Sequence record: SRR31156797_362
Direction: 5' to 3' (one strand)
DNA length: 29,003 bases
The position numbers and the translations under genes are program-made. Positions 9,090 to 25,796 of this stretch are shown here, in pieces (positions within the stretch are counted from its first letter, which is position 1; each line of letters begins with the position of its first letter). The notes under the pieces are model-generated. The model was not told where the DNA came from. It searched no databases and was given only the letters and a program-made list of their open reading frames with translations.

Positions 9090-9192
9090 GTTCCATTCAT
9101 AGAATGGTTGAGGAGAAGAAACAAGAAAAGTTCATGTTATTAATAAGGGAGATGTGTTGACTTATAGGGATGATTATCAGATGTATTTAAGT

Positions 9193-9957: not shown

Positions 9958-9985
9958 GCCATAATGATAATACAAGGAGTCACCC

Positions 9986-10465
9986 ATGAAAAAGTGTTGT
10001 CTGATTGCTCTCTGTGCGGCTTTTACATTGTCTTTGCTGGCTGGTTCTGCTTTGGCCGAAGGAAAACCGGGGCCAGATGCAAAAGAGTTATGGAACTATA
10101 TCACCAAGGTTGATCCATATACCGAATGGGGTTTCTGGCCGGATCATGAAGGAATGCAACCCGGTCGTGCTCCTCATGGTCCGAAACACAAGGTTTATGT
10201 GAATTCGGCTGGGTTGAATTCAAAAATGCCGCCAGTTGCATGTGGCACCATTGAGGTTAAAGAAAATTATAGCCCTGATGAAAAGCTTGCGGCCATTACA
10301 GTCATGTATAAGGTGAGTGGGTATAATCCAAGCGATGGAGACTGGTTTTGGGTGAAATATTCACCCGATGGCACGGCAGACAAGGCTGGAAAGCCGGCAG
10401 GTTGCATTGGTTGCCATGGGACGCGTGCTGCCAATGATTTTATTTTGGTGCATGAATTTAAGTAG
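9986..10465 (+). CDS. Cytochrome P460 family protein
   Basis: Signal peptide (ALA-E), KVYVN, GTIEVKENY, ITVMYK..GY.P..GDWFW, C-terminal CIGCH...DFI; SD AAGGAG. Confidence 0.85.
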   Translation: MKKCCLIALCAAFTLSLLAGSALAEGKPGPDAKELWNYITKVDPYTEWGFWPDHEGMQPGRAPHGPKHKVYVNSAGLNSKMPPVACGTIEVKENYSPDEKLAAITVMYKVSGYNPSDGDWFWVKYSPDGTADKAGKPAGCIGCHGTRAANDFILVHEFK

Positions 10466-10526: not shown

Positions 10527-10973
10527 TTAATGGCTTTTTATTTGGCTGACATCGGGTATGTCTTCCATGGATTTTCCATAATATACAAATTTTAAGATTC
10601 CATTTTTATCTATCAACATTTGGGCTGGCATTCTGCCTAATTTAATAAGACGTACTTCTTGTCCATAAAGATTCAACACAGAGTGTTTCGGGTCGGGAAG
10701 CCCGACAAAGGGAATTCTTTCTTTTTCCCAATATGTTATAAAAGATTGTGGTTTTTCAGGTCCGACAACGAGTATTTCAATGTCCAAAGCCTTGATCTGT
10801 TCGTACTCTTGACGCAACTGCGCCATGTGCTGTCGGCAGAATGGTCACAAAAAACTTCTATTGAAGACGAGCAATACATGTTTTTTTTGAGCATAATCAG
10901 ACAGAGATATTTTTTGCCCCGCTACATCCTTCAAAGTGAAGTCAGGAGCTTGTGATTCTACGGCTACCTGCAT
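10527..10973 (-). CDS. AhpC/TSA (peroxiredoxin-like, thioredoxin-fold) selenoprotein with UxxC motif, 148 aa
   Basis: ATG at 10973 with SD GAGG; MQVAVESQAPDFTLKDVAGQKISLSDYAQKKHVLLVFNRSFL-UGA(10845-10847)-PFCRQHMAQL... continues in frame into the 99-aa track ORF. Confidence 0.88.
10810..10825 (-). promoter_or_regulatory. Putative bacterial SECIS element
   Basis: mRNA UGGCGC-AGUU-GCGUCA hairpin; the loop contains GU and starts 25 nt after the UGA. Confidence 0.65.
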
Positions 10974-11266: not shown

Positions 11267-12499
11267 ATGGGAAAGCATATCATTGAAGAGGCGAGTCGCT
11301 GCTTGCAATGCAAGAAACCGTTGTGCAGCAAGGGGTGTCCGATCAGTACCCCAATTAATGAAGTTATAAAACTCTTGCTTGACGGGAAGACATACGAAGC
11401 GGGCGAACTTTTGTTTAATAACAATCCGCTATCTGTTGTTTGTTCTCTTATCTGTCCGCATGAAAATTTCTGTGAAGGCCATTGTATTCTTGGCAAAAAG
11501 AGTTCTCCTATTCAGGTCAGTGACATCGAAAACTATATCTCCAGTTATTATCTGGAACAGCTTCAGATGAAGAAGCCCGAGCATGAGAATAATGGCAAAA
11601 AGATAGCGATAGTTGGTTCCGGTCCTGCTGGCCTAACTGTTGCCTTTATCCTTGCTTCAAAGGGGTTTGATGTGACTATTTTCGAATCCGAAGATAAGAT
11701 AGGCGGAGTCCTTCAGTACGGCATTCCCGATTTTCGTTTGCCAAAAAGCATTTTGGTCAAACTCAAGAAGATGTTGGAACGGCTGGGTGTTAAAATACGT
11801 CCCAATATGGTCATTGGTCCTATTATTACGCTCGAAGATCTTCTGCGTGATGGATACAAGGCAATCTTCATCGGGACCGGTGTGTGGAGTCCCAAGCCTT
11901 TACGTATCAAAGGTGAAACTTTGGGAACGGTCCACTACGCGATTAATTATCTCAAAAATCCTAATGTTTATTCTTTAGGCAAGCGAGTGTTTGTTATCGG
12001 CGCAGGAAATGTGGCCATGGATGTTGCCAGAACAGCCCGACGCAAGGGGGCGGAAGAGGTCACTGTCCTCTATCGCCGTGGCGAAGAAAATATGTCGGCC
12101 ACCAAATACGAGTATGAGTATGCCAAACTTGATGGTGTCGCATTTCAATTTTATACTGCACCTCTCGAAATTTTGGATGATGGTATTCGATGTGTCAAAA
12201 CTCACCTTGAGGAACAGGACGGTTCAATGCGTCTTGTTACTGAAGAGGGCAGTGAACACTTTCTTGAAGCGGACACAGTTTTTATTGCGGCCAGTCAGGC
12301 TCCGAGAGATAATTTGTCCGGTATTGAAGTCGGTAAAACAGGCCTCATCATAACCAATGAAGATGGCCGAACCACTCGGGAAGGGGTTTTTGCTTCAGGT
12401 GATGTTGTCACAGGTGCCAAGACTGTGGCTGAAGCGGTGAATCTTTCCAAACGTTCTGCACAAGCCATTATGGATTATGTCGCAACCTTGAAAGAATAA
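11267..12499 (+). CDS. GltD/NfnB/SudA-like Fe-S flavoprotein, NAD(P)-dependent oxidoreductase
   Basis: EASRCLQCKKPLCSKGCP, CSLICPHENFCEGHC, IVGSGPAGL, YGIPDFRLP, VIGAGNVAMDVAR, LYRR, VFASGDV. Confidence 0.88.
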   Translation: MGKHIIEEASRCLQCKKPLCSKGCPISTPINEVIKLLLDGKTYEAGELLFNNNPLSVVCSLICPHENFCEGHCILGKKSSPIQVSDIENYISSYYLEQLQMKKPEHENNGKKIAIVGSGPAGLTVAFILASKGFDVTIFESEDKIGGVLQYGIPDFRLPKSILVKLKKMLERLGVKIRPNMVIGPIITLEDLLRDGYKAIFIGTGVWSPKPLRIKGETLGTVHYAINYLKNPNVYSLGKRVFVIGAGNVAMDVARTARRKGAEEVTVLYRRGEENMSATKYEYEYAKLDGVAFQFYTAPLEILDDGIRCVKTHLEEQDGSMRLVTEEGSEHFLEADTVFIAASQAPRDNLSGIEVGKTGLIITNEDGRTTREGVFASGDVVTGAKTVAEAVNLSKRSAQAIMDYVATLKE

Positions 12500-12582: not shown

Positions 12583-13989
12583 TCAATCCCTTGATATTCC
12601 GTGCTGTTTGATGAGGACATAAAATCGAGCGCGAGAAATTCCTGCGACTTCGCATGATTTTTTGACATCCCCCCCGGTTATATCAAATAGATTAAGAAGA
12701 TACCGTTTTTCCATTTCTTCATACTGAAGATTTCGATACTCTTTGAGAGTCGGGAAATCTTGTGGATCAATACGTAAGTGGTCCTGATGTTCTTCTCTAC
12801 TGATTCCTTTTTCCATATCACGACGAGCAATTTCCGCACGGATGGCACGTGGCAGGTGACGAGGGTAAAGTATCGATTCTTTGCCAGCTCGTGAAAGGGC
12901 TTGCTCAATGGTGTTTTGAAGTTCTCGGATGTTGCCTGGCCATTTATAGTTCATCAGTGCATCTAAGAAATCAGGCGAAAATCCTTTGCTCGCCATTTTA
13001 AGTCGTTTGGAATGATGCTGAATGAATTTACATGTCAATTCGTTAATGTCTTCGGTGATTGATCGAAGTGGCGGAAGTTGCATGCGGATACCGCGCAGCC
13101 GATAAAAGAGATCTCGCCGGAAGTCTGCTTTTTCAACCATGGCCTCAAGGTTTCGATTGGTTGCTGCTACAAGACGAAAATTACTCTGGATTTCCTTCAT
13201 GCCACCAACAGGACGAAAGCTTCGTCCTTCCAGTACACGCAGAAAAACTTTTTGCAGGGACATCGGCAATTCTCCTACTTCATCAAGAAAGAGAACACCG
13301 CTGTCAGCTTGTTTGACTAACCCCACGGAATTTCTATCCGCGCTAGTATATGCTCCGCGTTCATGACCAAAGAGAAGGTTCTCTGCCAAAGTGTCTGGTA
13401 GGGCAGCACAGTCAACAACAATAAAAGGATTTGCTGCTCGTTCACTGTTTTTGTGGATGGCTCGTGCGAAAAGTTCTTTGCCTGTTCCGGTTTCTCCAGT
13501 GATAAGAACATTTGCATCTGAACTTGCAGCATGCGCCAGTGTATCCAGACAAGACTGAAGCAAGCGACTATTGCCTATGATACCGGAACGCCGCAAAGAA
13601 CATCGGATGCCCCCGCTATATCGCTCTTCATGATATTCTATAACCCGTTTTATAAGAACGAGAAGTCGCTGCATATTCGGTGGTTTGGTGATGTAGTTCC
13701 ACGCACCGTTTTGAATAGCCAGTTCAGCCATGTCAGGATTTCGGCTACGGGAAATGACAATGACTTCAGGAAAGGACGGAATTTCTCTGATTGTTGCGAG
13801 GTAAGCTAGACTGTCACCATCCGCAAGATCATCTCCAAGCAGTACAGCCTTGTAGTCTCCGGTGTGAAGCAGGCCCATCGCACGTGACAATGTATCACAG
13901 TCTGCCGTCGGTAGACCGTGTGTTGCAAGAGCTTTACCCAAGGCTTGAGTAAACCTCCTGTCTCCATCAATAATGAGAATTTCGGCCAT
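12583..13989 (-). CDS. Sigma54-dependent enhancer-binding protein (NtrC-like REC-AAA+-Fis HTH) with an atypical receiver
   Basis: Start MAEILIIDGD at 13989 (SD GGGAG); Walker A GETGTGKE; GAYTSA (GAFTGA variant); LFLDEVGE; FRRDLFYRL; WPGNIREL; C-terminal HTH. The phospho-Asp position is Gly52 (VLLGDD). Confidence 0.92.
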   Translation of the reverse strand: MAEILIIDGDRRFTQALGKALATHGLPTADCDTLSRAMGLLHTGDYKAVLLGDDLADGDSLAYLATIREIPSFPEVIVISRSRNPDMAELAIQNGAWNYITKPPNMQRLLVLIKRVIEYHEERYSGGIRCSLRRSGIIGNSRLLQSCLDTLAHAASSDANVLITGETGTGKELFARAIHKNSERAANPFIVVDCAALPDTLAENLLFGHERGAYTSADRNSVGLVKQADSGVLFLDEVGELPMSLQKVFLRVLEGRSFRPVGGMKEIQSNFRLVAATNRNLEAMVEKADFRRDLFYRLRGIRMQLPPLRSITEDINELTCKFIQHHSKRLKMASKGFSPDFLDALMNYKWPGNIRELQNTIEQALSRAGKESILYPRHLPRAIRAEIARRDMEKGISREEHQDHLRIDPQDFPTLKEYRNLQYEEMEKRYLLNLFDITGGDVKKSCEVAGISRARFYVLIKQHGISRD

Positions 13990-14120
13990 GACGTAATTCT
14001 CCCTCTTCCTACAAAGAAGTCCCCACATAATTATACCATGAATTGTGCGGGAATTGTCAAATCTGTCTACATCTTGAAATTGTTGAAGAAAAAAACATAT
14101 CGTTTTGAGAGAGTTAAAAA

Positions 14121-14280
14121 GTCTCGTCTGACAAGACACACAACGCTCTTTGAAGCATGAGAGACTCTTGAGAGTCCTCGCACAATCTTTTGCAAATAAT
14201 TTCATCTTATGAATGGCAGGGGACTCTCTTCAAGGTGAGGATGTGTCTTGTTTTGCAAGACTCATCTTGTACGAGAAGAC
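14121..14280. promoter_or_regulatory. Candidate enhancer (UAS) sites, GTCT-N9-AGAC x3
   Basis: GTCTcgtctgacaAGAC (14121-14137), GTCTTGttttgCAAGAC (14245-14261), ATCTtgtacgagaAGAC (14264-14280); the last two lie about 90-125 bp upstream of the -24 element. Confidence 0.55.
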
Positions 14281-14367
14281 GTTTTAAGCCTGATTTTCAA
14301 GGGAAAACAGCATGTCTGCCAATAGACTCTCTCTCCATCAATCGAGAATATCTATACAACTCGAAAG

Positions 14368-14383
14368 CGGTACGCATCTTGTT
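14368..14383 (+). promoter_or_regulatory. Candidate sigma54 -24/-12 promoter of the hdr operon
   Basis: CGGTACGCATCTTGTT versus consensus TGGCACGNNNNTTGCW; correct GG-N10 spacing, with GT instead of GC at -12. Confidence 0.6.
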
Positions 14384-14523
14384 CTTAGAGAGCAAGTGAG
14401 AATCGTCCGGGAGTAACGCGGATATCCGGGAAAATGAATTTCCTTTTGGTTCAAGCGGGGTTGCTGATTCAAGGGCAACAATATTCAAGCGGTTCGCGTA
14501 GCGCGACACTCTCATACTCTCCA

Positions 14524-14847
14524 TGTGAACGCCCCGGAAAAGAGAAGACAAGGGAATACGGCAAGGAGGTATCACGAATGCGGCGCAAATGGGATGCACG
14601 GAAAAAAGCAAAGATCGTCTTGGAAGGCCTTATGGGAGGGTGCGTTAATGACTTGTGTCGCTCCCACGACCTGCGACCCGGACAGTATTACAAGTGGCGA
14701 GGGCAATTCCTGGAACAATGCCATCAGGTTTTTGAAAAGCGACCGAATCTGTCGAGTGAATCAGAGTTGGTGGCTGAAAATGAAGAACTCAAAAAACTGG
14801 TGGGTGAACTGACTTTGGAACTGACCAGCGGCAAGAGTAGTCGTTGA
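14524..14847 (+). mobile_element. IS3-family remnant: left-IR-like sequence plus orfA; no orfB, no right IR
   Basis: TGTGAACGCCCCGGAAAAGAGAAGACA resembles IS3-family left ends (TGAACCGCCCCGG...GAGAC type) and lies about 50 bp before an OrfA-like ORF; no DDE integrase ORF follows. Confidence 0.55.
14578..14847 (+). CDS. IS3 OrfA-like helix-turn-helix/leucine-zipper protein (89 aa), first gene of the hdr operon
   Basis: MRRKWDARKKAKIVLEGL...VNDLCRSHDL...QYYKWRGQFL...ENEELKKLVGELTLE; perfect SD AAGGAGGT; stop 22 nt before the hdrA ATG. Confidence 0.8.
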   Translation: MRRKWDARKKAKIVLEGLMGGCVNDLCRSHDLRPGQYYKWRGQFLEQCHQVFEKRPNLSSESELVAENEELKKLVGELTLELTSGKSSR

Positions 14848-14869
14848 CACGTCGAGGAATGGAGGAACC

Positions 14870-16894
14870 ATGGGCAACAAAATCGGAGTATACATCTGTC
14901 ACTGCGGTTCGAACATCGCGGGAAAGGTCGATTGCGAAGACGTGGCCAGGTATGCCGGAAAACTCAAGGACGTGGCGGTCTCTCGAGACTACCAATTCAT
15001 GTGTTCGGACCCGGGACAGGAAATGGTTATCAAGGATATCCGCGAATATGGGCTCAACAGGGTCGTCGTGGCATCCTGTTCACCGCGTCTGCATGAAAAG
15101 ACTTTTCAGAAGGCCTGTGCACGGGCTGGGTTAAATCCCTATCTCATGCAACACGCATGTATTCGGGAACATTGTTCATGGACAACCGCTGATCCGGATG
15201 AAGCGACAGCCAAGGCCAAGCATATTGTCGAAGCGGCCGTTGATAGAGTGGGCGATCACGAGAAACTCTTTTCACGCGAAGTGGATGTCCTGCCGGATGT
15301 CATGGTCGTTGGTGCTGGCATCGCCGGTATTCAGGCGTCCCTTGATATCGCCAAATCAGGACATAAGGTTCATTTGGTTGAAAAAAGTCCGTCAATTGGT
15401 GGGCATATGGCCCAGTTCGACAAGACATTTCCTACATTGGATTGTGCAGCCTGTATTTCCACTCCCAAGATGGTGGCGGTATCGCAGGAACCGAACATTA
15501 ATCTGATGACTTGGAGTGAAGTTGAGGACGTTTCCGGTTTTGTCGGGAATTATACAGTAACCGTGAAGCACAAGCCTCGGTATGTGAACGAAGCTGTCTG
15601 TACCGGCTGCGGAGCCTGTCTGGAAAAGTGTCCAACCAAAGCTTTGAACGAGTTCAACGAAGGGCTTTCCATGCGAAAGGCCATTTATCGGAATTCGCCA
15701 CAGGCCGTACCGAGTACGCCGGTCATCGATGGTTCTATCTGTAAAAAGATTACTAAAGATAAATGTGGAATATGTCAGACCATATGTCCTACTGGAGCCA
15801 TCGATTATACTATGAAGGAGACTCATGAAGTCTTTAATGTCGGTTCCATTGTACTGGCTACCGGATACGATGCCATGGACCCGACACCATTGTACGAATA
15901 CGGCTTTGGTCGATTCGACAATGTGTACACTGCGTTACAATTCGAACGGCTTAACAACGCAGTTGGTCCCACCGAGGGAAAGATTATCTTGAAGAATGGC
16001 GAGGCGCCCAAAAGTGTCGGCATAATTCATTGTGTGGGCAGCCGTGATAAAAACTATCACGAATACTGTTCGCGCACCTGTTGCATGTACGCCCTCAAAT
16101 TTGACCATCTTATCAAGGATAAAGTCGGACACGATACCAAGGTGTACAATTTTTACATTGATATGAGGTGCTTCGGCAAGGGGTACGAAGAGTTCTTCAA
16201 GCGTGTTCAAGAGGAAGGTGTGACCTTTATTCGGGGGCGTCCAGCTGAAGTTGTCGAAGAAGATGACAAGCTGGTGATCGTTGGTGAAGACACCTTACTC
16301 GGGATGAATGTGCGTGTACCTGTGGACATGGTCATTCTGTGCACTGCCATGGAAGCGCGTAAAGATGTCACTGAAGTGGCCCGTATATTTGGTGTGGCTC
16401 AAGGGCAGGATGGATTCTTCCTTGAAGAACATCCCAAGTTGGGTCCGGTTTCTACCGCGACCGATGGTGTGTTTCTTGCCGGAGCCTGTCAGGGACCAAA
16501 AGATATTCCAGATGCCGTTGCTCATGCTTCAGGTGGTGCAGCGCAAGCTCTTGCGCTTGCTGCCAAGGGGACTGTTTCCATATCTCCGACAACTTCGTGG
16601 ATCGACCCGGACGTCTGCATCGGATGCAAGGTGTGTATTAATCTGTGCCCGTACTCAGCCATTGAGTTTGACGAACGGCGACAGATATCGGTTATCAACG
16701 AAGCAATGTGTAAGGGCTGTGGCAGCTGTGCAGGGTATTGCCCAAGTGGGGCCGCGCAGATCAAGCACTTCAATCAGACTCAGATATTCAATGAAATCGA
16801 CGGAATGCTTGGCATGATGTTTGACCTTGTGCCTCCTGAGGCCGAGGGACAAAGAGCTGAGGCAGTCAGTGATAATCAACCGGGCGAAGCCTAG
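14870..16894 (+). CDS. hdrA: Heterodisulfide reductase subunit A
   Basis: IGVYICHCG, VVASCSPRLHE, IREHCSW, VGAGIAG, DKTFPTLDCAAC, inserted ferredoxin, QFER, HCVGSRD..CSRTCCMYALK, C-terminal 2x[4Fe-4S]. Confidence 0.95.
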   Translation: MGNKIGVYICHCGSNIAGKVDCEDVARYAGKLKDVAVSRDYQFMCSDPGQEMVIKDIREYGLNRVVVASCSPRLHEKTFQKACARAGLNPYLMQHACIREHCSWTTADPDEATAKAKHIVEAAVDRVGDHEKLFSREVDVLPDVMVVGAGIAGIQASLDIAKSGHKVHLVEKSPSIGGHMAQFDKTFPTLDCAACISTPKMVAVSQEPNINLMTWSEVEDVSGFVGNYTVTVKHKPRYVNEAVCTGCGACLEKCPTKALNEFNEGLSMRKAIYRNSPQAVPSTPVIDGSICKKITKDKCGICQTICPTGAIDYTMKETHEVFNVGSIVLATGYDAMDPTPLYEYGFGRFDNVYTALQFERLNNAVGPTEGKIILKNGEAPKSVGIIHCVGSRDKNYHEYCSRTCCMYALKFDHLIKDKVGHDTKVYNFYIDMRCFGKGYEEFFKRVQEEGVTFIRGRPAEVVEEDDKLVIVGEDTLLGMNVRVPVDMVILCTAMEARKDVTEVARIFGVAQGQDGFFLEEHPKLGPVSTATDGVFLAGACQGPKDIPDAVAHASGGAAQALALAAKGTVSISPTTSWIDPDVCIGCKVCINLCPYSAIEFDERRQISVINEAMCKGCGSCAGYCPSGAAQIKHFNQTQIFNEIDGMLGMMFDLVPPEAEGQRAEAVSDNQPGEA

Positions 16895-16903
16895 GAGGCA
16901 GTG

Positions 16904-17329
16904 ATGAGTAGTGAATTTGAACCGACCATTCTGGCCTTTGTCTGCAATTGGTGCACCTACACCGCAGCAGATCTCGCCGGAACGTCGAGAATGGTACAAC
17001 AGCCAAATTTACGATTAGTACGCGTTATGTGTACCGGCATGGTGGACCCTAAGTACATTGTGAAGTCGCTCCTTTCCGGGGCTGACGGAGTGCTTGTCAG
17101 TGGGTGTCATCCCGGTGATTGCCATTATATCAACGGCAACTACAAAGCCCGGCGTCGGGTTAAGCTTCTCAATGAAATCCTGCCTCAGTTTGGTGTTGAA
17201 CGGGAGCGCGTCAAGCTGACTTGGGTGGGAGCGAGTGAAGGGAATGAATTTGCGGAAACGGTAAATTCTTTCATTAACGAAATCAGAGAACTCGGTCCCA
17301 TGGAAGCGCGTTCCATGGCCGTGGTTTAG
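16904..17329 (+). CDS. mvhD: MvhD/FlxD [2Fe-2S] subunit
   Basis: FVCNWCTYTAADLAG, RVMCTG, GADGVLVSGCHPGDCHY; SD AGGAGG. Confidence 0.93.
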   Translation: MSSEFEPTILAFVCNWCTYTAADLAGTSRMVQQPNLRLVRVMCTGMVDPKYIVKSLLSGADGVLVSGCHPGDCHYINGNYKARRRVKLLNEILPQFGVERERVKLTWVGASEGNEFAETVNSFINEIRELGPMEARSMAVV

Positions 17330-17347
17330 ACACTGGGAGGTGGCGAC

Positions 17348-18493
17348 ATGGCGACCACTGTGAAAATACAAGTTGAAAATAACAATCCGGTTGTGGCGAT
17401 CCAGGGCTTTTTGCGCGGCTTGCTGGAAGACGAGTCGTTAGGCGGAGTTGTGGTACCGGTCCACCTGTTCGACAAAGGAATTCCCATGCCCACACTGGTA
17501 ACTGATCCAGATCAACTTTCAGGTGCTGATCCATTAGCTCCGGCATTTCCCATGAACAGTGCAAAACTACTTTCGCGATTGACACGAGGGCAATCTGGCG
17601 AGCGCATTGCCGTTGTCATGCGACCTTGTGAGATTCGTGCATTCGTGGAGCTGGTCAAACTCAATCAGGGTAGTCTCGACGACGTCATTATCGTGGGAGT
17701 GGACTGTATGGGGGCCTACGACAACACCGGTTATAAGACTTTTGTTGGTGATCGGGATTCGTTTGAGGCAACGCTCGCCTTCCAAGGGCAACATGGTGGA
17801 GCGAATGAAACTGCGGTGAACGGCGTGGATATCGCTCCGGCCTGTAAATCCTGTGAATTCCCGGCTCCAACCAATGCGGATATCGTTATTGGAATTGCCG
17901 GTGCAGATCTGCACGATGCTATTCCTGTCATGGCTGACAGTGCGCGAGGCGAAGCTTTGCTTAATAGCCTTGGATTACCCGACATGGAAACCAATGGGCG
18001 CGACGCGGTACTCGAATCGCTTATCAAGGTCCGTACTGAACATCGTGACGCCATGATTGAAGCAACTCAGGCTGCTACCGGAACATTGTCGGACTTGTCG
18101 GAATATCTGTCGAGTTGCGTGAACTGCTACAACTGTCGAGTGGCCTGTCCGGTCTGCTACTGCAAGGAATGTGTGTTTAATACGGACGTGTTTGAACACA
18201 AGCCGTGGCAATACCTGGGCTGGGCCAAGCGTAAGGGAAGCCTCAAGCTGCCCACAGATACCATCTTCTACCATCTGACCCGTATGGCGCACATGTCCAT
18301 GGCCTGTGTCGGGTGTGGGCAGTGCTCCAATGCCTGTCCTAACGGCATTCCTGTAATGGAGTTGTTCCGTACAGTCGCAGCGCGGACACAGAAGAGCTTT
18401 GATTACGAACCGGGCAGAAGTCTGGAAGAGTCGCCACCGCTTTCGGTTTTCAAGGAAGACGAGTTCCAGGACACAGTGTCACACATGGCCTGA
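17348..18493 (+). CDS. FdhB/FrhB-like (F420 hydrogenase/dehydrogenase beta-like) Fe-S protein with a 2x[4Fe-4S] domain
   Basis: AVVMRPCEIRAFVELVKLNQ..LD...VGVDCMG, ACKSC, CVNCYNCRVACPVCYCKEC, CVGCGQCSNACP. Confidence 0.8.
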   Translation: MATTVKIQVENNNPVVAIQGFLRGLLEDESLGGVVVPVHLFDKGIPMPTLVTDPDQLSGADPLAPAFPMNSAKLLSRLTRGQSGERIAVVMRPCEIRAFVELVKLNQGSLDDVIIVGVDCMGAYDNTGYKTFVGDRDSFEATLAFQGQHGGANETAVNGVDIAPACKSCEFPAPTNADIVIGIAGADLHDAIPVMADSARGEALLNSLGLPDMETNGRDAVLESLIKVRTEHRDAMIEATQAATGTLSDLSEYLSSCVNCYNCRVACPVCYCKECVFNTDVFEHKPWQYLGWAKRKGSLKLPTDTIFYHLTRMAHMSMACVGCGQCSNACPNGIPVMELFRTVAARTQKSFDYEPGRSLEESPPLSVFKEDEFQDTVSHMA

Positions 18494-18521
18494 TGACAGG
18501 TCCCAGTTTCGGGAGGACGTT

Positions 18522-21500
18522 ATGAGGAAGCAATACGGAGCAATGGTGGTAGGCGCAGGAATCGGTGGTATACGCGCCGCCCTCGACCTGGCCGTTACCG
18601 GTCACAAGGTCGCTCTTATCGACCGCCGTCCAAATCACGGTGGAATCTTGAGTCAACTTGACCACCAATTCCCGTCTGATCATTGTGGCATGTGTAAAAT
18701 GCTGCCGCTTATGTCACGGGATTCATCCAGCCAGTATTGTCTGCGCAAAGGGCTGTTTCACGATAATATTGATATTATGCTCTCCACCGAAGTGGCAGAA
18801 GTTGAAGGTGAGCCGGGCAAATTCTTTGTCTCTTTAAACCGAACTTCCCCCTTGGTGGACCCGACAAAATGTGTCAGTTGCGGCAAATGTTCCGAAGTTT
18901 GCCCAGTGCGTGTGGACAGTGAATTCAACGCCGGATTAACTCAGCGAGCGGCTATTTATCTGCCGGTTCCGCACGCCATCCCCAATCAGTATGTGCTGGA
19001 TTTGAACAACTGCCTGCGTTGTTGGAAGTGTCATGAAGTGTGTCCTACCGGGGCCATTGATTTCAAATTCGAAGAGCGCAAGGATTTTCATATCCTTGTG
19101 GTTGATCGAGATGAAATGGTTCAGGAAATGATGCAGGGAAGTCTCGATGAACAGAATTTTCCCCTTCATTTTACCGCAAGTGGGCGTGAGGCTGTGGACC
19201 AACTCGCTGAAACCGATCAATTTAGACTTGTCCTGCTTGGATTAAATATCAATGACATGGACGCTGAACGTGTCCTGACACGTTGTCAGGAACTTCATCC
19301 AGATATGCCAGTGGTCATTTTGGCAGACAGTAGTCAGGAAGAGACTGCTTCAGCTCTTGTTATGCAGGGTGCACGTGAATATTTGACTAAGCCATTGACT
19401 GCAAAGAAATTTGTGCCGTGGCTCGATAAATTGTTCGTGCGTATTCTGTCCGACACAGTCGAGGAACTGGAAGTCGGAGCTATTGTCTTGGCTGGTGGAT
19501 TTGAGTGTTATGATCCGAAGACCGATCCTTCCGCTTCGTCGGAAATTTGGAATTATGATCACCCCGGCGTACTCACGGCGGTAGAATTCGAACGACTTCT
19601 AAGCGGAACCGGTCCTACCGGCGGTAAGTTGTTGCGTCCCGGTGATGACAAGCCCGTCAAAAAGATTGCATGGATTCAATGTGTCGGCTCACGCGATGTG
19701 CAGAGGAATGCGGACTTCTGTTCTGGTATATGCTGTATGTTTTCCATCAAGGAATCATTGCTCGCTAAAAAAGTGACCAATGGTGCTGTGGAGACCTCCA
19801 TCTTTTACATGGACATGCGTACGGCAGGAAAGGGGTATCAACGCTATCGCATCAATGCTGAAAAGGAAGAGGGCGTGCGTTTTGTTCGCAGCCGTCCTCA
19901 TTCCCTCTTGCCGACGGATAACGGGCAGGACATCAAGCTTGAGTACTTTGCCGAAGACGGGACTATGGTCACTGAAATCTATGACATGGTTGTTTTGGCC
20001 GTGGGCGCTCGTCCGCCAAAGAATACAGACACCTTCGCGCAAACTATCGGCATTGATCTTAATCAATGGGGTTTTGCAGATACGCAACCGTATTCACCGG
20101 AACGTACAAGCGCGGTCGGTATTTTTGCCGCCGGGGCGTTTGGTGAACCCAAGGACATCTCCGAATCCGTGATTCATGCAGGAGCAGCAGCGCAAGCCGC
20201 GTCCCGCATCATCAAGGCATATGACGTGCTGGCGGGTATTGAGGACGAACCTGAACCCGAGTTCCCAGACGTTTCGCGTGAACCACCTCGTACATTGGTG
20301 GCAGTCTGTGCATCCTGTCCTACTTTGGAGCAATCTGTGGATATCGAAGCGTTGAGTCTGCGTATGGCCAATGTGCATTCGGTATGCAAGGTTGTAAGTG
20401 TAGGAAGTGCCTGCACCGTAGAAGGGTGGGGCGATATTGAACAGGCGGCCATAGAGTTTAAGCCGAACCGTATTATCATCGGTGCGTGTATGCCTTACGC
20501 CTACATTCCCCGTCTCAAGGAATTGGGCAAGACCATTGGTTTGAATCCCGCACTTATGGATGTGGTGGATATTTATACACCGACCTTTGGCCCGGAAACA
20601 AACGCACGAACAGCGGAGAAGGAAATTTACGCATCCTTGTCCACGGCTGTTGCTCGGTTGCAAGGAGTCGACCCAACACCGCCACCCAATATGGTTGATG
20701 TAGAACGATCGGCTCTGGTTGTTGGCGGAGGGTTGGCAGGCATGACAGCAGCCATGTCCATTGCAGATCAGGGTTACGGAGTTTGTTTAGTTGAATCCGA
20801 GGAAGAACTCGGGGGCATGGCTATGCGACTGCATACACAACTCGATGGTTCCGATCCTCACAAGTACATGGAAGAACTGATCGCGCAGGTGGAAAAGCAT
20901 CCGAATATCAAGGTGCTTAAGGATTCCCGAGTCGTGCTGTCTCGAGGCAGTGCAGGACGGTTCCGTTCAGCCATCGCCAGCCCGGAAGGAGTCTTCCCGC
21001 TTGAGCATGGTGTATCCATCCTCGCTACAGGCGCACACGAGGCCAAGGTCTATGAAAGTGGTCTGTGCGTACACAAGTCGGTGATGACTCATTTCGCATT
21101 GGAAGAACAGCTAGCTACAGGTCAGCTTGATGCAGGCATACTCTCTTCGGTTGCCATGATTCAGTGTTGGCGCAAACCCGGTGAGGACCGCACCTATTGC
21201 AGCAAGGTCTGTTGCCCGGAAATGGTCAAGAATGTGCTTGCTCTCAAGGAGCGCAACCCCGATTTACCGATATACGTGTTCTACCGTGATATCATGATGC
21301 CTGGTTTCCTTGAGACCTACTACACGCAGGCGCGGAAGGCCGGAGCCATTTTCATTCGATATGAACAAGATGAACCTCCACAGGTAAAATTTGAGGAAGG
21401 CAAACCGGTTATTACGGCCTACGACCCCATTCTCAGAGAAAATATCGTTCTTAGGCCGGATATCCTGTCACTTTCGAGTGGTATGGAACCTAATGACATG

Positions 21501-21956
21501 GATGATATCCAAGAAGTTTTTGGTGTGGAGATCAACGAAGACGGTTTCTATCAGGAAGCTGACTTCAAATGGCGGCCCGTGGATTTCCTTAAGCAGGGTG
21601 TCTACGCGTGCGGAACAGGTTTGGCTCCTCGTCGAATGGGAGAATCTGTCGCTTCTGCCAAGGCAGCTGCTCAACGCGCACTGAGAATTCTCAATGCAGA
21701 AACCATTGCCCGCGAAACCGTAGTGGCCTCTGTCCGACACTCCCTGTGTTCATTGTGTCAGGCGTGTGTCGCGGCCTGTCCATATGGAGCGCGTGTGCTT
21801 GATATGGAACTCGGTCAGATTCAGGTGGACGAAATTCTGTGTCAGGGCTGCGGTTCCTGTGCAGCAGTCTGTCCCAACAGCGCCACGGTCCTTAAAGGAT
21901 TCCACGACGGGCCGATGATGTCTGTCATTGACGCAGCACTCGAAGAACCGGCGTAA
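18522..21956 (+). CDS. hdrA: Tandem HdrA-HdrA flavoprotein (1144 aa) with an inserted receiver-like domain
   Basis: Start MRKQYG at 18522 (SD GGGAGG). Two FAD sites (VGAGIGG, VGGGLAG), DHQFP.DHCGMC, ferredoxin, REC at residues ~189-309, WIQCVGSRD..CSGICC, IIGAC, MIQC..YCSKVCC, C-terminal ferredoxin. Confidence 0.9.
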   Translation: MRKQYGAMVVGAGIGGIRAALDLAVTGHKVALIDRRPNHGGILSQLDHQFPSDHCGMCKMLPLMSRDSSSQYCLRKGLFHDNIDIMLSTEVAEVEGEPGKFFVSLNRTSPLVDPTKCVSCGKCSEVCPVRVDSEFNAGLTQRAAIYLPVPHAIPNQYVLDLNNCLRCWKCHEVCPTGAIDFKFEERKDFHILVVDRDEMVQEMMQGSLDEQNFPLHFTASGREAVDQLAETDQFRLVLLGLNINDMDAERVLTRCQELHPDMPVVILADSSQEETASALVMQGAREYLTKPLTAKKFVPWLDKLFVRILSDTVEELEVGAIVLAGGFECYDPKTDPSASSEIWNYDHPGVLTAVEFERLLSGTGPTGGKLLRPGDDKPVKKIAWIQCVGSRDVQRNADFCSGICCMFSIKESLLAKKVTNGAVETSIFYMDMRTAGKGYQRYRINAEKEEGVRFVRSRPHSLLPTDNGQDIKLEYFAEDGTMVTEIYDMVVLAVGARPPKNTDTFAQTIGIDLNQWGFADTQPYSPERTSAVGIFAAGAFGEPKDISESVIHAGAAAQAASRIIKAYDVLAGIEDEPEPEFPDVSREPPRTLVAVCASCPTLEQSVDIEALSLRMANVHSVCKVVSVGSACTVEGWGDIEQAAIEFKPNRIIIGACMPYAYIPRLKELGKTIGLNPALMDVVDIYTPTFGPETNARTAEKEIYASLSTAVARLQGVDPTPPPNMVDVERSALVVGGGLAGMTAAMSIADQGYGVCLVESEEELGGMAMRLHTQLDGSDPHKYMEELIAQVEKHPNIKVLKDSRVVLSRGSAGRFRSAIASPEGVFPLEHGVSILATGAHEAKVYESGLCVHKSVMTHFALEEQLATGQLDAGILSSVAMIQCWRKPGEDRTYCSKVCCPEMVKNVLALKERNPDLPIYVFYRDIMMPGFLETYYTQARKAGAIFIRYEQDEPPQVKFEEGKPVITAYDPILRENIVLRPDILSLSSGMEPNDMDDIQEVFGVEINEDGFYQEADFKWRPVDFLKQGVYACGTGLAPRRMGESVASAKAAAQRALRILNAETIARETVVASVRHSLCSLCQACVAACPYGARVLDMELGQIQVDEILCQGCGSCAAVCPNSATVLKGFHDGPMMSVIDAALEEPA

Positions 21957-21981
21957 TTCGGAAATATGGAGGAATAACGCC

Positions 21982-22548
21982 ATGAGCGAAGCAATAAGAA
22001 AAACATGGATCCCGGCCAGAGATGAAATCGAGTTCGTGCTCGCCCAATTAAAGGAAGAAGTTGGGGCCTGCATGCAGTGCGGCACCTGTACAGCGTCCTG
22101 TCCTAATGGGTTCGCTATGGATATAACTCCGCGGGCTATGTGGCGGATGATTCAGTTTGGCATGCTCGACGAGATACTTGAGAGTCATACCTTCTGGATG
22201 TGTTCGTCCTGTTACACCTGCACACTGCGGTGTCCACGAGGTCTCAAACTCACTTCGGTTATGGCTTCTCTGAAGAGACTGGCCATGCTCAGTGGCAAAG
22301 GTCGTAAGAACAGTGCGTTCTATAGAGCGTTCATGGAAAACGTCGAGTCACATGGTCGGGTGCAGGAAATGGGCATGATGAGCAATTACTTCTTCAAACG
22401 CATGGATAACCCGACGCTACCGCTCAAGTTTGTACCGCTGGGTATGAAGATGATGGCCAAGGGCAAAGTACATATGCCGGGTGGCGGTCAGGGCGGAGTG
22501 CTGAAGCCTATGTTCGCCAAGGCGCGAGAGATGGAGGGATTGTCATGA
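21982..22548 (+). CDS. hdrC: Heterodisulfide reductase subunit C
   Basis: CMQCGTCTASCP...PR..WRMIQFG...WMCSSCYTCTLRCPRG; ATG at 21982 behind GGAGG. Confidence 0.9.
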   Translation: MSEAIRKTWIPARDEIEFVLAQLKEEVGACMQCGTCTASCPNGFAMDITPRAMWRMIQFGMLDEILESHTFWMCSSCYTCTLRCPRGLKLTSVMASLKRLAMLSGKGRKNSAFYRAFMENVESHGRVQEMGMMSNYFFKRMDNPTLPLKFVPLGMKMMAKGKVHMPGGGQGGVLKPMFAKAREMEGLS

Positions 22549-23498
22549 AATACGCATACTACCCAGGTTGTTCTTTGACTGAAAGTGCGACGGAGTTTGA
22601 TATCTCTACGCGTGCAGTCATGGATTATCTTGGTGCCGAATTGATCGAAATTCCAGACTGGACCTGTTGCGGCGCGAGTGCAGCCGAGCCTGTGAGCAAG
22701 CTCATGAATTATGCGCTTCCGGCACGGAACCTTGCCCTTACTGAAAAGGAACTTGATGGCATTGATGTGATTGCGCCGTGTTCCGCCTGTTATCTTAACC
22801 TCCTCAAGGTTAACAAGGAAGTAGTTGGAGACAGGAGCCTACATGGCAAGGTGAATGAAGTGCTGGCTGCGTCTGGTTTGACTTATTCCGGCAAGGTGGA
22901 AGTACGACATATTCTCGATGTTCTCATCAATGATGTCGGGGCAAAAATTATTGAACAGAAGGTGACCAACAATCTTGAGGGCATGAAGATCGCCCCATAT
23001 TACGGGTGTCAGATCTTACGACCATACCCGGTGTTTGATGATCCCAAGAACCCTACATCCATGCATCGTGTTCTTACGGCATTGGGTGCAGAAGTGCATG
23101 AGTGGGATCACGGAAACAAATGTTGCGGTGCATCGCTCATGATGGGGCATCGCGATGTGGCGCTTCAATCTGTTGCAGCAATACTCGCTGACGCAGAGGG
23201 CGCGGATGCCATCGCTACAGTCTGTCCATTGTGCCAGATGAATCTTGAGGCATATCAGTCGCAGGCGCAGAAACTTGGAGCCAAACCTATCCCCATTCTC
23301 TATCTGACACAATTGATGGGCGAAGCCTTTGGGCTGGAGGATGGGGCCATTCAATTCGAGAAAAACCTGACCATATCGGCTGGGGTCAGGAGGGATATCG
23401 CCAACAAGGTCTGGAGCCAGCCGAACCAGACCGAAAGCGGCGACGATATGGCGGAAGCAAAGGCGGATAACCTCAGCAAGGGGGCAAGTCATGTTTAA
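22545..23498 (+). CDS. hdrB: Heterodisulfide reductase subunit B
   Basis: YAYYPGCSL, DWTCCG, APCSAC, APYYGC, KCCG, TVCPLCQMNL; ATGA overlap with hdrC. Confidence 0.93.
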   Translation: MKYAYYPGCSLTESATEFDISTRAVMDYLGAELIEIPDWTCCGASAAEPVSKLMNYALPARNLALTEKELDGIDVIAPCSACYLNLLKVNKEVVGDRSLHGKVNEVLAASGLTYSGKVEVRHILDVLINDVGAKIIEQKVTNNLEGMKIAPYYGCQILRPYPVFDDPKNPTSMHRVLTALGAEVHEWDHGNKCCGASLMMGHRDVALQSVAAILADAEGADAIATVCPLCQMNLEAYQSQAQKLGAKPIPILYLTQLMGEAFGLEDGAIQFEKNLTISAGVRRDIANKVWSQPNQTESGDDMAEAKADNLSKGASHV

Positions 23499-24393
23499 GG
23501 ACATCATCGTAGGAGTCACTCCTACCGGAATCGACAATTGCGCGGTTCAGGCAGCAATGGAATTCGCTCGTAAGTTCGAGTCCAAGCTTTACCTCGTTCA
23601 CGTAGCGGGCATGGCTCAGGGCTGGGGCTCCATCGAAACCCTGGAACCTTCGGGTGAAACTTCTCGGCTCAAGGAACAGATCTCTGAAACCTATGCGGAA
23701 ATGCTTGAGGGCATCCCGGAATCACAAATCATTGTCGTACCGGGTATCCCACACAACGAAATTCTGCGTCTTGCACGAAAGAAGAACACTGATCTTATCG
23801 TCATGGGACCGCACACCAAGGAATACGAGGAGACCCGTTCCAAGATGTGGGGTATGACAGGCAGTACGCTCGAACGCGTTAGCCAGAAGGCCCGCTGTCC
23901 GGTCATGATCGTTCATAAGGACGTTGTCTGCAAGGAACCGCTGTATAGCAACATCCTTGTGGCAACCGACTTCTCTGATCAAGCTGAATGCGCCGTAAGT
24001 TACGGCGGCCAGATGGCCCGTCAGTACAAGGCCAATCTCAAGATCATGCATGTCGTGGAAAATGGAAACAGTCGTTCTGAAGTCATCGGTCGATTGGAAG
24101 ATGAATATGGTCCTCGCCTTGATGGTATCGGCGAATGCGGTTTCGAGGCCTGTCGCGGCAAGCCTTCCATGGAAATTCTGCGCATGGGGAATCAGGCCGA
24201 TGCAGACTTGATCATCATGGCTCACCATTCCAAGGAACGTGACCCAGAAAAGGCTTTCCTTGGGTCGACAGTTACTCAGGTGGCATTGAATGCACCGTGT
24301 CCGACCATGAGCGTCAACCGTCACTTCGATCTGCGTTGTGGTCTTATGTACGACCAGACAGGCGCAGCTGTTCAGACAGAGGCCTTGGCCTAG
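23491..24393 (+). CDS. Tandem universal stress protein (2x USP)
   Basis: FKDIIVG...LYLVHV...DLIVMG...GSTLERV..KARCPVMIV, then ILVATDFS...DLIIMA...LGSTVTQVALNAPCPTMSV. Confidence 0.9.
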   Translation: MFKDIIVGVTPTGIDNCAVQAAMEFARKFESKLYLVHVAGMAQGWGSIETLEPSGETSRLKEQISETYAEMLEGIPESQIIVVPGIPHNEILRLARKKNTDLIVMGPHTKEYEETRSKMWGMTGSTLERVSQKARCPVMIVHKDVVCKEPLYSNILVATDFSDQAECAVSYGGQMARQYKANLKIMHVVENGNSRSEVIGRLEDEYGPRLDGIGECGFEACRGKPSMEILRMGNQADADLIIMAHHSKERDPEKAFLGSTVTQVALNAPCPTMSVNRHFDLRCGLMYDQTGAAVQTEALA

Positions 24394-24441
24394 ACGAAAA
24401 TTCAGTGTGAATAAGAGTTGAACCTTACGATAAACGGTTTT

Positions 24442-24463
24442 CGGGAGCGGGTGACCGCTCCCG
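24442..24463. other. Intra-operon GC-rich hairpin without a U-tract
   Basis: CGGGAGCGG-GTGA-CCGCTCCCG, a perfect 9-bp stem between usp and the HdrD-like gene. Confidence 0.6.
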
Positions 24464-24500
24464 GGAATCCGGCGGCATAAGTCCGCGAAAGGAGTTAGCC

Positions 24501-25796
24501 ATGGGTGAAGCAGCGCTTCTTATCGAGCCGAAGCAATCGGAACTGGTGGACAAGGTCCGGGAACTGCTGCCCGAGGGCGGTAATCTGAATATGTGTCTCA
24601 CGTGTGGAGCCTGCTCTGCCGGATGTCCTGCTACGGGTATGGAAGACATGGACCCTCGTAAATTTCTGCGTTTAGCACTTATGGGGCAGGAAGAGGCAAT
24701 TCGTTCGACATCCTGGGTGTGGCTGTGCACCATGTGTCGGCGGTGCGTTCATGCGTGCCCCATGGAAGTGGATATCCCTCAACTGATCTACCAATGTCGT
24801 CAATCATGGCCAAGGGAAGATCGTCCGAAGGGAATACTTGGTTCCTGTGAGCAGGCATTGAACACTCCGGGCAACAGCGCCATGGGTGCATCCAGCGACG
24901 ATTTTAAATTCGTGGTCGAGGATGTGGCCGAAGAAGTTCGTGAAATGCAGCCTGGTCAGGAAAATATTCAAGTCTCTGTAGACAGAAAGGGCGCCTATTA
25001 TTTCCTTAATCAAAACTCTCGTGAACCAGTGACCGAACCTGACGAAATGGTTCCGCTTTGGAAGATACTTAATCTGGTTGGCGCGGATTGGACCTACAGC
25101 ACTAAAGGTTGGGCCGCAGAAAATTACTGCATGTTCCTAGCCGATGATGACGCATGGGAAAACGTGGTGCGCAACAAGGCAGGAGCCGTGGAAGAGTTGG
25201 GGTGCAAGGTCTGGCTCAATACGGAGTGAGGACACGAATTTTATGCAGTCCGGGCTGGACTGCAAAAGTTTAATGTCGAACACGACTTCGAGATGGAAAG
25301 CATCATCCGGCTGTATGCCCAGTGGATTCGTGAGGGCAAGCTGCCAGTCAATTCCGATTGGAACAAGGACTTGGGTGTGACCTTCACGGTTCAGGACCCG
25401 TGTCAGCTTGTACGGAAATCACTGGGTGATCCGGTGGCCGAGGACCTTCGTTTTGTGGTCAAATCCGTTGTCGGTGAAGAGAATTTCATCGATATGTGGC
25501 CGAATAAATCCAACAATTACTGTTGCGGTGGTGGCGGTGGATTCCTTCAGTCAGGTTTTGCGGACGAACGGCGTAAATACGGTCAGATCAAGCTCGACCA
25601 GATTCTTCGCACCAAGGCAGACTATTGTATCGCGCCATGTCACAACTGCCATTCTCAGATTCATGATCTCAGTGAATACTCCGGCGCACACTTTCCGGTA
25701 GTTCACCTCTGGACGCTCATTTGTCTTTCGCTTGGTATCCTCGGCGAAAACGAACGTGAATATCTCGGAGATGATTTGAAGAATGTAGGGTTGTAG
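24501..25796 (+). CDS. HdrD/DsrK/GlpC-like (Fe-S)-binding CCG protein, selenoprotein (Sec243), 431 aa
   Basis: Track ORFs 24501-25229 and 25293-25796 are one frame joined through UGA 25227-25229: WLNTE-U-GHEFYAVRAGLQKFNVEHDFE-MESII, i.e. the ECGH motif. Also CLTCGACSAGCP, CTMCRRCVHACP, QDPC, YCCGGGGG, APCHNC. Confidence 0.9.
25244..25264 (+). promoter_or_regulatory. Bacterial SECIS element
   Basis: Perfect 8-bp stem TGCAGTCC-GGGCT-GGACTGCA; the G-rich loop begins 22 nt after the UGA. Confidence 0.8.

Follow-up and report, generated by a model that had tools for sequence, protein, structure and literature searches.

In sulfate reducers and syntrophs, heterodisulfide reductase (Hdr)-like complexes are believed to deliver electrons to DsrC and, apart from the Flx-Hdr complex, we know of no such Hdr-like complex that has been characterised. 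The locus considered here lies at positions 12583-25796 of a 29,003-nucleotide stretch of DNA from sequence record SRR31156797_362, the whole of which is referred to below as the window. It consists of a gene for a sigma-54 enhancer-binding protein (EBP), on the minus strand, that diverges from nine co-oriented genes in the order orfA-hdrA-mvhD-fdhB-like-hdrAA-hdrC-hdrB-usp-hdrD, where orfA encodes a helix-turn-helix (HTH) protein, hdrAA carries an inserted receiver domain and hdrD contains a selenocysteine (Sec) codon. The core of this cluster has already been described in two earlier papers and is, as far as the literature searched shows, biochemically uncharacterised; the window carries a kinase-less derivative of it with pseudo-receivers, orfA and usp. 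We consider it probable, at roughly 0.6, that the operon specifies one Hdr machine of the bifurcating type under sigma-54/EBP control and that it represents a kinase-less, Pseudodesulfovibrio-type derivative of a locus widespread among the Desulfobacterota.

Among the closest described loci is one of the nine hdr loci reported for Desulfobacterium autotrophicum (Strittmatter 2009, PMC2702500). According to passages of that paper, locus VIII of strain HRM2 comprises hdrL/hdrA4, mvhD, fdhB, hdrC, hdrB and hdrD2, with hdrL/hdrA in tandem, some other loci show fdhB followed directly by fdhA, and the legend to the hdr-loci figure includes a response regulator, a histidine kinase and a CheY-like regulator; Sec-containing HdrD proteins were also reported from the genome. 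In Syntrophobacter fumaroxidans the gene set termed HdrABC/HdrL corresponds to Sfum_0819-0824 and, according to text passages of a 2018 proteome study (PMC5947623), its products were abundant with sulfate and complete only then; the authors speculated about confurcation and a DsrC-linked role, and those same passages do not mention a receiver domain. The Sec-containing HdrD component was also already known, since 'Fe-S oxidoreductase (GlpC)' appears, in the relevant section of Zhang et al. 2006 (PMC1794560), as a listed selenoprotein family beside hdrA operons of Deltaproteobacteria. An earlier interpretation of the window made from its letters alone, hereafter the sequence-only reading, had presented the cluster as a candidate new system, and this cannot be upheld because the core is drawn or named in both PMC2702500 and PMC5947623; an encoded protein is, moreover, already named in public databases. 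A full-text literature search, covering main texts, yielded neither a biochemical study of this locus type nor a paper discussing a receiver in HdrA.

The gene arrangement is not due to chance. Pattern matching in a collection of species-representative genomes gave 388 stretches, of which 260 encode a relative; the loci of 16 relatives were fetched, together with a further 80 which are the best 80 of the 260. The six core genes are co-linear in all 16 fetched loci, and hdrC and hdrB follow hdrAA in 60 of the 80 further loci, most of the remainder ending at a contig edge. This check of cluster conservation bears out the suggestion that the genes are conserved as a unit of Hdr type, one that is probably bifurcating. 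The core, hdrA-mvhD-fdhB-like-hdrAA-hdrCB, extends across the Desulfovibrionales, Syntrophobacterales and Desulfobacterales, and the best 80 relatives belong to Pseudodesulfovibrio, which is closest, and to Maridesulfovibrio, Desulfomicrobium, Solidesulfovibrio, Desulfolutivibrio, Desulfocurvus and Desulfobaculum, as well as to the Desulfohalobiaceae, Syntrophobacterales, Desulfobacteraceae and one Latescibacterota metagenome-assembled genome. It is chiefly in Desulfovibrionales that the core is joined by the universal stress protein (USP), HdrD and the divergent EBP and, among the 80 loci, usp follows hdrB mainly in those of the Desulfovibrionales type. The first HdrA region contains a GltD-like match, and so amounts to HdrL, in 20 of the 80 loci; for one of them (L080) the insert was confirmed by Pfam. 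Gene order, orthology and a tree of HdrAA together place the window inside the hdrL/hdrA-mvhD-fdhB-hdrA(REC)-hdrCB family. The nearest genome, designated G001, shares 92% of words and shows 99% protein identity, and it is 100% complete.

All ten genes were confirmed by combining the list of open reading frames (ORFs) with Pfam and NCBIfam profiles, in agreement with the sequence-only reading, which had described nine tightly linked genes and an EBP and had noted an HTH protein and a USP among the products. Four gene starts, those of the EBP, orfA, hdrAA and hdrC, were corrected; in the uncorrected list the nine plus-strand genes fell within 14434-25796 and the minus-strand gene occupied 12583-14205. 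The features are as follows.

12583..13989, minus strand: sigma-54 EBP, 468 aa, with a degenerate receiver, an AAA+ domain and a C-terminal HTH.
14121-14137, 14245-14261 and 14264-14280, no strand assigned: three palindromes, GTCTTG-N5-CAAGAC, which form conserved blocks in a MAFFT alignment of 10 intergenic regions.
14368..14383, plus strand: sigma-54-like -24/-12 element, CGGTACGCATCTTGTT, with GG-N10-GT rather than GC, conserved in 10/10 aligned regions.
14578..14847, plus strand: orfA, first gene of the operon, encoding an 89-aa protein of the HTH_Tnp_1 type (43 bits) and preceded by an AAGGAGG ribosome-binding site.
14870..16894, plus strand: HdrA, 674 aa, a complete four-domain HdrA (NCBIfam HdrA2, E 4e-238).
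16901..17329, plus strand: MvhD-type [2Fe-2S] adaptor, 142 aa (Pfam FlpD, 181 bits).
17348..18493, plus strand: FdhB/FrhB-like flavo-iron-sulfur protein, 381 aa, with FrhB_FdhB_C and ferredoxin matches.
18522..21956, plus strand: HdrAA, a tandem HdrA of 1144 aa with a GGGAGG ribosome-binding site, delimited by Pfam and structure alignment.
19089..19451, plus strand: pseudo-receiver inserted in HdrAA at about residues 190-310 (Pfam Response_reg, 52.7 bits, cut-off 30.2).
21982..22548, plus strand: HdrC, 188 aa, with two [4Fe-4S] motifs and a corrected start (NCBIfam CoB_CoM_SS_C, E 8e-25, below cut-off).
22545..23498, plus strand: HdrB, with two intact CCG motifs (Pfam CCG, twice).
23491..24393, plus strand: tandem USP (usp), 300 aa in two domains (Pfam Usp, 131 bits, in two stretches).
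24501..25796, plus strand: HdrD-type selenoprotein, an HdrC and HdrB fusion of 431 aa in one frame, with Sec243 encoded by the TGA at 25227-25229.
25245..25263, plus strand: hairpin resembling a selenocysteine insertion sequence (SECIS), 15 nt downstream of the TGA, its nucleotide sequence conserved in 25/25 rows while the flanks vary.

The nine plus-strand genes are closely packed, with intergenic gaps of -8 to +28 nt except for the 107 nt before hdrD; the coding regions of hdrC and hdrB overlap, as do those of hdrB and usp, where the usp start overlaps the hdrB stop. On the plus strand no terminator-like site with more than five stem pairs occurs inside the operon, and the window contains no tRNA gene. 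The Hdr-type cluster includes no membrane subunit, every product being a flavin or iron-sulfur protein.

The start of the EBP gene was set at 13989 because Met73 of the long ORF is where the alignment to homologues, and to the solved NtrC1, begins; NtrC1 (1ny5/4l4u) aligns with the resulting protein from residue 3. Pfam matches are Sigma54_activat (212 bits) and, weaker, Response_reg (46.7 bits). The loop by which such activators contact sigma-54 has the consensus GAFTGA and reads GAYTSA in the window. Alignment of the promoter region by MAFFT, covering the window and nine intergenic regions from the same genus, yielded the block CGGyACGCATCTTGT, with GG-N10-GT or GA, and hdrA is preceded, at a distance of 57-120 nt, by a similar element, yGGCAC-N5-TTG[A/T/G], in the majority of the more distant loci, which suggests that the non-consensus -12 part is a family trait. 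The three palindromes are probable EBP binding sites (upstream activating sequences); a stretch of 160 bp contains three matches where 0.59 would be expected across the entire window, for a pattern chosen after the sites had been seen. G001 encodes rpoN (456 bits, cut-off 277). Predicted control of the operon by sigma-54 and the EBP is thus well supported by the conserved sigma-54-like promoter and the three palindromes, as the sequence-only reading had anticipated in linking the EBP to the operon. Two other conserved elements were seen in this region, an inverted pair GAGAGT...ACTCTC located between the palindromes (within 14168-14231) and a leader motif, 'ACACTCTCATACTCTCC', at 14506-14525 in the leader of about 195 nt that precedes orfA. 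Rfam gave only chance-level matches on the 5' region.

The small orfA gene, 22 nt beyond which hdrA begins, is present in all 25 loci lacking an adjacent histidine kinase gene and in 4 of the 27 that contain one. It occurs as a single copy in G001, with no transposase beside it. The possibility that orfA is a remnant of an IS3-family element was ruled out by its single copy, the lack of a transposase orfB and its conserved position in 29 loci.

Turning to the enzyme subunits, HdrA residues 4-646 align with positions 1-640 of the 777-position HdrA2 profile (792 bits, below the curated cut-off of 1100), while MvhD covers its C-terminal MvhD part, positions 645-775, such that the two proteins together span the fused profile. 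By Pfam, the window HdrA lacks the Fer4_20/GltD insert of HdrL. The FdhB-like protein is an approximately full-length homologue, by phmmer, of FdhB, the beta subunit of F420-type formate dehydrogenases, from the solved Fdh-Hdr complexes; residues 17-372 of 381 align with 26-392 of 414 in the best match, 7bkb_E (E 9.5e-33), and 9t1s_M and 8rvu_E are also matched. Thus, the trio FdhB-MvhD-HdrA of the methanogen complex is present without FdhA.

HdrAA was aligned piecewise to the solved HdrA structures 8rvu and 5odc and to sHdrA (6tjr). Residues 7-182 correspond to the FAD start and inserted ferredoxin domain, 315-512 to the remainder of the first thioredoxin-reductase-like domain, 585-758 to the HdrA N-terminal domain and second FAD start, and 1004-1144 to the C-terminal ferredoxin domain, with residues 731-1056 resembling the sHdrA-type flavoprotein 6tjr; the receiver thus immediately follows the ferredoxin domain inserted in the first half. 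There are, therefore, three FAD modules of the HdrA type, one in HdrA and two in HdrAA, as had been proposed. The proposed pair of disulfide-reductase-type subunits was likewise found: HdrB contains the pattern C...CCG...CxxC twice, with both CCG motifs intact, and HdrD forms one frame interrupted by a single TGA. The features of a soluble HdrABC-MvhD system that are present are the HdrA domain set, the two CCG motifs of HdrB, the two [4Fe-4S] motifs of HdrC and the MvhD adaptor. A co-encoded donor, whether MvhAG hydrogenase, FdhA or Flx, is absent from the cluster and from the flanking window ORFs scanned against Pfam, where the sequence-only reading had also seen none and where the FdhB-like protein stands alone. 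The flanking genes scanned encode a carboxylase pair and rubredoxin-reductase-like, CHASE2 cyclase, DUF1499, methyltransferase-domain, P460-like, Prx-like, GltD-like and DEAD helicase proteins. ATP-binding USPs carry the motif G-2x-G-9x-G(S/T); inspection of the window USP by eye revealed none.

For hdrD, translation table 11 gives two ORFs, which read-through of the TGA joins into one frame. The NCBIfam matches of the product are HmcF/TmcB/DsrK-like, all below cut-off. Within the first, degenerate CCG domain ('NTEUGHE'), the predicted Sec stands where the 'CCG' signature has its second Cys. The TGA is retained in 25/25 orthologue rows with identity of at least 55%, representing 23 distinct loci, and it recurs at the same column in five HdrD genes of the Desulfobacterales type (L096, L107, L108, L109 and L116). 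A Cys occupies the Sec position in 31 rows of an HdrD paralogue (about 29% identity) and in one HdrD orthologue (L105). The SECIS-like hairpin has a fold energy of -17 kcal/mol and a z-score of -3.55. The Sec machinery was sought in G001 as nearest genome, rather than in the window's own assembly, and both selB (398 bits, cut-off 242) and tRNA-Sec (81.8 bits, cut-off 47) were found there. With a conserved in-frame TGA, a downstream hairpin, Cys homologues and the Sec machinery in G001, all features expected of bacterial selenoproteins, the assignment of Sec to HdrD is well supported as a prediction. The Cys-containing HdrD paralogue of about 29% identity, which reads 'MPDCGGGSY' around the Sec position, lies downstream of the Sec-hdrD in eight loci (L025, L026, L037, L040, L043, L054, L058 and L061), and elsewhere it takes the place of the Sec form (for example in L027, L028, L030, L034 and L035). 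Outside the operon, a Prx-like (AhpC/TSA) gene at 10527-10973, on the minus strand, also has an in-frame TGA, in 'FLUPFC', where table 11 lists only a 99-aa tail; it probably encodes a second selenoprotein of the window, of the known 'Prx-like thiol:disulfide oxidoreductase' family.

The scheme we favour, at the level of confidence given above, is that one sigma-54 promoter, controlled by the divergent EBP, would drive all nine genes from orfA to hdrD, and that their products would assemble around the HdrA-type flavins into a flavin-based electron-bifurcating or confurcating machine, by analogy with the solved Fdh/Mvh-MvhD-HdrABC complexes and with Flx-Hdr. One flavin would bifurcate or confurcate electrons between ferredoxin and a disulfide or trisulfide acceptor, most likely of the DsrC type, and the acceptor would be reduced at the CCG clusters of HdrB and probably also at the Sec site of HdrD. 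MvhD and the FdhB-like protein would provide a third electron port, for a redox partner encoded outside the cluster.

Several observations weigh against this scheme. No donor is encoded with the cluster, and the NCBIfam matches of all Hdr subunits fall below the curated cut-offs, which suggests that they are relatives of the methanogen enzymes rather than their equivalents. Five loci (L079, L086, L088, L096 and L105) run past hdrAA without hdrCB, with an HdrD-type gene present where hdrCB would be expected in L096, so that the complex may be modular. The cluster is patchy, being absent from 8 of the 25 genomes of the same genus; full-length HdrAA is encoded in the other 17, though fragmented in one, as well as in 5 of 16 genomes of other families of the order, and this distribution indicates an accessory function rather than a core part of sulfate respiration. 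With regard to the regulation, a strict scan for TGGCAC-N5-TTGCW between the EBP gene and hdrA gave no match, the -12 part reading GT and not GC, and the Asp residues at +1/+2 after the Gly at the acceptor position of the EBP ('LLGDD') might still accept phosphate.

Both receivers of the window have lost the acceptor Asp. That of HdrAA retains the receiver fold, with 107 solved receivers matched at E <= 0.001, but when compared with YycF its acceptor Asp has become Gly ('LVLLGLNIND' against '...LLD...'), DD has become DR and Thr has become Ala; its signature is DRDGAK, such that only the Lys and flanking Asp residues are retained. In the EBP, 'AVLLGDDLADGD' aligns with 'VVLLDLLLPD' of NtrC1 and places Gly at the acceptor position ('AVLLGDD'), and the acidic pocket reads 'IDGD' against 'IEDD' ('DGD' instead of 'DDD'), a state that is conserved in the loci of the same genus. 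The description of the two as matching pseudo-receivers holds in so far as both lack the acceptor Asp; it fails in that they are only 26% identical, which is ordinary for two receiver domains, and that the shared state arose in a single clade.

Six signature positions were counted over 92 distinct loci, that is, 96 rows less the duplicates L038, L044, L060 and L070, which repeat L023, L024, L032 and L033; for 40 of the 92 an orthologous EBP was not captured. The HdrAA receiver is canonical (DDEDTK) in 29 of the 92 loci, all of the Syntrophobacterales/Desulfobacterales type, and degenerate in Desulfovibrionales, where it is mostly x-P-D with D, S, G or A at the acceptor position. The EBP retains its acceptor Asp in 27 loci, every one of which has an adjacent histidine kinase gene, and among these the HdrAA acceptor is usually D (19 loci), otherwise S (7) or G (1). 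In the 25 loci where the EBP acceptor is Gly, no adjacent kinase gene was found (0/25), and HdrAA carries Gly and orfA is present in all 25. The adjacent kinase has the architecture PAS-PAS-HisKA-HATPase-REC in L056 and PAS-HisKA-HATPase in L080. One Desulfovibrionaceae-type subclade of eight loci (L054-L056, L058, L059 and L061-L063), in which the hybrid PAS kinase is kept, has in addition a separate gene, located between usp and hdrD, for a canonical CheY-like receiver (L056:15011-15403, plus strand).

A quick FastTree of HdrAA, made without bootstrap, groups all Gly/Gly loci in a single clade (26 rows, SH-like support 100); the double loss is therefore one event and cannot be given statistical weight as a correlation. 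Acceptor states S, G and A of the HdrAA receiver fall in other branches, including ones in which the kinase and the EBP Asp are kept. Given that relatives have a canonical EBP with an adjacent PAS kinase, whereas the window clade has no kinase and Gly at both acceptor positions, the two receivers of the window are most simply interpreted as relics of a lost phosphorelay, decayed in a single event. The receivers of HdrAA and the EBP would then descend from the phosphorelay of PAS histidine kinase, EBP and, sometimes, CheY-like protein that relatives retain; in the window clade the kinase would have been lost, both receivers would have lost their phospho-site, and they would function without phosphorylation, most likely as structural or constitutive modules. 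Decay following the loss of the kinase accounts for this pattern better than does a designed link from enzyme to activator.

A more ambitious interpretation of the same domains is that the HdrAA receiver is a switch on a bifurcating flavoenzyme. In solved HdrA the inserted ferredoxin domain carries the low-potential branch, and the position of the receiver beside it suggests, by analogy, that the receiver could gate that branch in the canonical relatives. The ancestral form would have one kinase and two or more receivers, the PAS kinase controlling transcription through the EBP and enzyme activity through HdrAA, and in the window the switch would have been rewired to work independently of phosphorylation, with the tandem USP, orfA or the redox state as candidate inputs and contact between the enzyme and activator receivers as one possible form. 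We regard this as speculative and rather unlikely. If true, the receiver would put a bifurcating flavoprotein under direct two-component control, which is rare for an energy-conserving enzyme. It is the relatives, more than the window, that provide the most interesting lead, namely a canonical receiver in a putative bifurcating flavoprotein with its kinase adjacent, and the kinase-less, Asp-less clade offers a natural comparison for the role of the receiver without phosphorylation.

The alternatives to the favoured scheme are taken here in the order in which they survive. The first is that the operon co-regulates separate modules, HdrA-MvhD-FdhB-like, HdrAA-HdrCB, and USP with Sec-HdrD, the last with a thiol/disulfide or stress function. 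The association of USP and HdrD with the core mainly in Desulfovibrionales is consistent with this, as are the loci without hdrCB or with an HdrD-type gene in its stead (L096), the long gap before hdrD, and the way in which Sec- and Cys-containing HdrD paralogues replace one another or co-occur in the hdrD slot. We nevertheless consider it unlikely in view of the constant order of the core genes across orders, the coding overlaps that tie hdrC to hdrB and hdrB to usp, and the joint detection of the S. fumaroxidans gene products when sulfate was present, as reported in passages of PMC5947623.

A second alternative concerns the missing donor and supposes that the FdhB-like protein docks a cytoplasmic FdhA encoded elsewhere, forming a bacterial counterpart of the methanogen FdhAB-MvhD-HdrABC. 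The near full-length homology of the FdhB-like protein to FdhB of the solved complexes favours this, and G001 encodes one Sec-FdhA of the cytoplasmic type (TIGR01591, 812 bits, cut-off 666) which has no adjacent FdhB, the only FdhB-like gene of that genome being that of this operon; fdhB and fdhA also stand side by side in the D. autotrophicum loci mentioned above (PMC2702500, in part). However, the Pfam scan of the cluster and flanking ORFs of the window detected no fdhA, and the orphan FdhA of G001 is encoded about 1 Mb from the operon, with its own kinase and EBP, and possesses N-terminal iron-sulfur domains of its own which typically serve other partners. The orphan FdhA and the single FdhB-like gene keep a formate link alive without demonstrating it, and we judge it decidedly unlikely. 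The FdhA gene of G001 is located at L117:7168-9954 (minus strand), near a urea transporter and its own histidine kinase and sigma-54 activator. F420 is an unlikely cofactor for the FdhB-like protein, since in the complete genome G001 CofD gave no match and the CofH-like matches, at 334 and 320 bits, did not reach the cut-off of 374.

The third alternative is an NAD(P)H-linked, split HdrL, in which a neighbouring flavoprotein would provide, in trans, an NAD(P)H site of the kind that Syntrophobacterales and Desulfobacterales relatives carry as part of HdrL. A GltD/NfnB-like NAD(P)H flavoprotein is encoded at 11267-12499 on the plus strand, convergent with the EBP gene and ending 84 nt from its stop. 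This proximity counts in its favour, as does the GltD-like domain inserted in the first HdrA of relatives (by Pfam in L080), which 20 of the 80 loci show as a match just upstream of mvhD with 33-39% identity to the window protein. But the gene is adjacent only in the window and in L021 and L022, being absent from the other 22 kinase-less loci, it lies outside the operon, and its product matches generic GltD families below their cut-offs. NAD(P)H is a plausible donor for the HdrL forms; for the window, where HdrA has no such domain, we find a split HdrL distinctly improbable.

The weakest alternative is the self-signalling put forward in the sequence-only reading, whereby the HdrAA pseudo-receiver would bind or titrate that of the EBP and enable the assembly or redox state of the enzyme to set the transcription of the operon that encodes it. 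Control of NtrC1-type activators by receiver dimers is known, and both receivers share the acceptor Gly in the same 25 loci with no kinase nearby, but the two are only 26% identical, their shared state is one event in one clade, the HdrAA Asp was lost in several other branches where the EBP Asp and kinase were kept, and the HdrAA receiver is much older than the kinase loss and canonical elsewhere, with an EBP in relatives that is itself canonical and sits beside a PAS kinase, so that the receiver comparisons produced no evidence for self-signalling and we hold it to be most improbable.

A single Hdr machine under sigma-54/EBP control remains our preferred reading of the locus. For annotation, the gain for the window is a set of corrected gene starts, an HdrD recognised as containing Sec, predicted membership of the sigma-54 regulon together with candidate binding sites, and an HTH gene unconnected with insertion sequences. 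Elsewhere in the window are a gene pair for a carboxyltransferase (ACCA-like, 760 aa) and a biotin carboxylase at 220-3889 (minus strand), a CHASE2-domain adenylate/guanylate cyclase of 741 aa at 5450-7675 (minus strand) and, at 9154-10465 (plus strand), a 267-aa ORF with a weak match to a SorB-type c-cytochrome followed by a cytochrome P460-like ORF.

Among known systems, the regulator is closest to the NtrC/NtrC1-type activators, with which it shares the arrangement of receiver, AAA+ and HTH domains, a sigma-54-like promoter and upstream palindromes, and from which it differs in the change of the acceptor Asp to Gly, of 'DD' to 'GD', and in the lack of an adjacent kinase. For the enzyme, the methanogen FdhAB-MvhD-HdrABC complexes (PDB 7bkb, 8rvu and 9t1s) have homologues of HdrA, MvhD, FdhB, HdrB and HdrC that are all encoded in the window, whereas the window lacks FdhA, is unlikely to use F420, and has in addition the tandem HdrAA with its receiver, the Sec-HdrD and the USP. 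Coenzymes M and B are, to our knowledge, absent from these bacteria. The FlxABCD-HdrABC complex of Desulfovibrio vulgaris (Ramos 2015, as cited in other papers) is similarly a soluble bacterial HdrABC with an MvhD-like adaptor and a proposed NADH/ferredoxin/DsrC link; in the window there are no Flx genes, and the donor module is replaced by the FdhB-like protein and a second, tandem HdrA. The window HdrD resembles the GlpC selenoprotein family, by its description in PMC1794560, in being an HdrD/GlpC-type CCG protein with Sec beside hdrA. The S. fumaroxidans HdrABC/HdrL, in the order given in the passages of PMC5947623, runs HdrL-MvhD-FeS(FdhB-like)-HdrA-HdrCB, as do Syntrophobacterales loci such as L080; this type has HdrL, and the L080 relative adds an adjacent PAS kinase, a canonical EBP and a canonical HdrAA receiver. 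Finally, locus VIII of D. autotrophicum, as presented in the hdr-loci section of PMC2702500, shares with the window the HdrL/HdrA-type tandem, mvhD, fdhB without fdhA, hdrCB and a soluble hdrD, and the window departs from it in having a first HdrA without the GltD-like (HdrL) insert, no kinase, receivers without the acceptor Asp, and the added genes orfA and usp.

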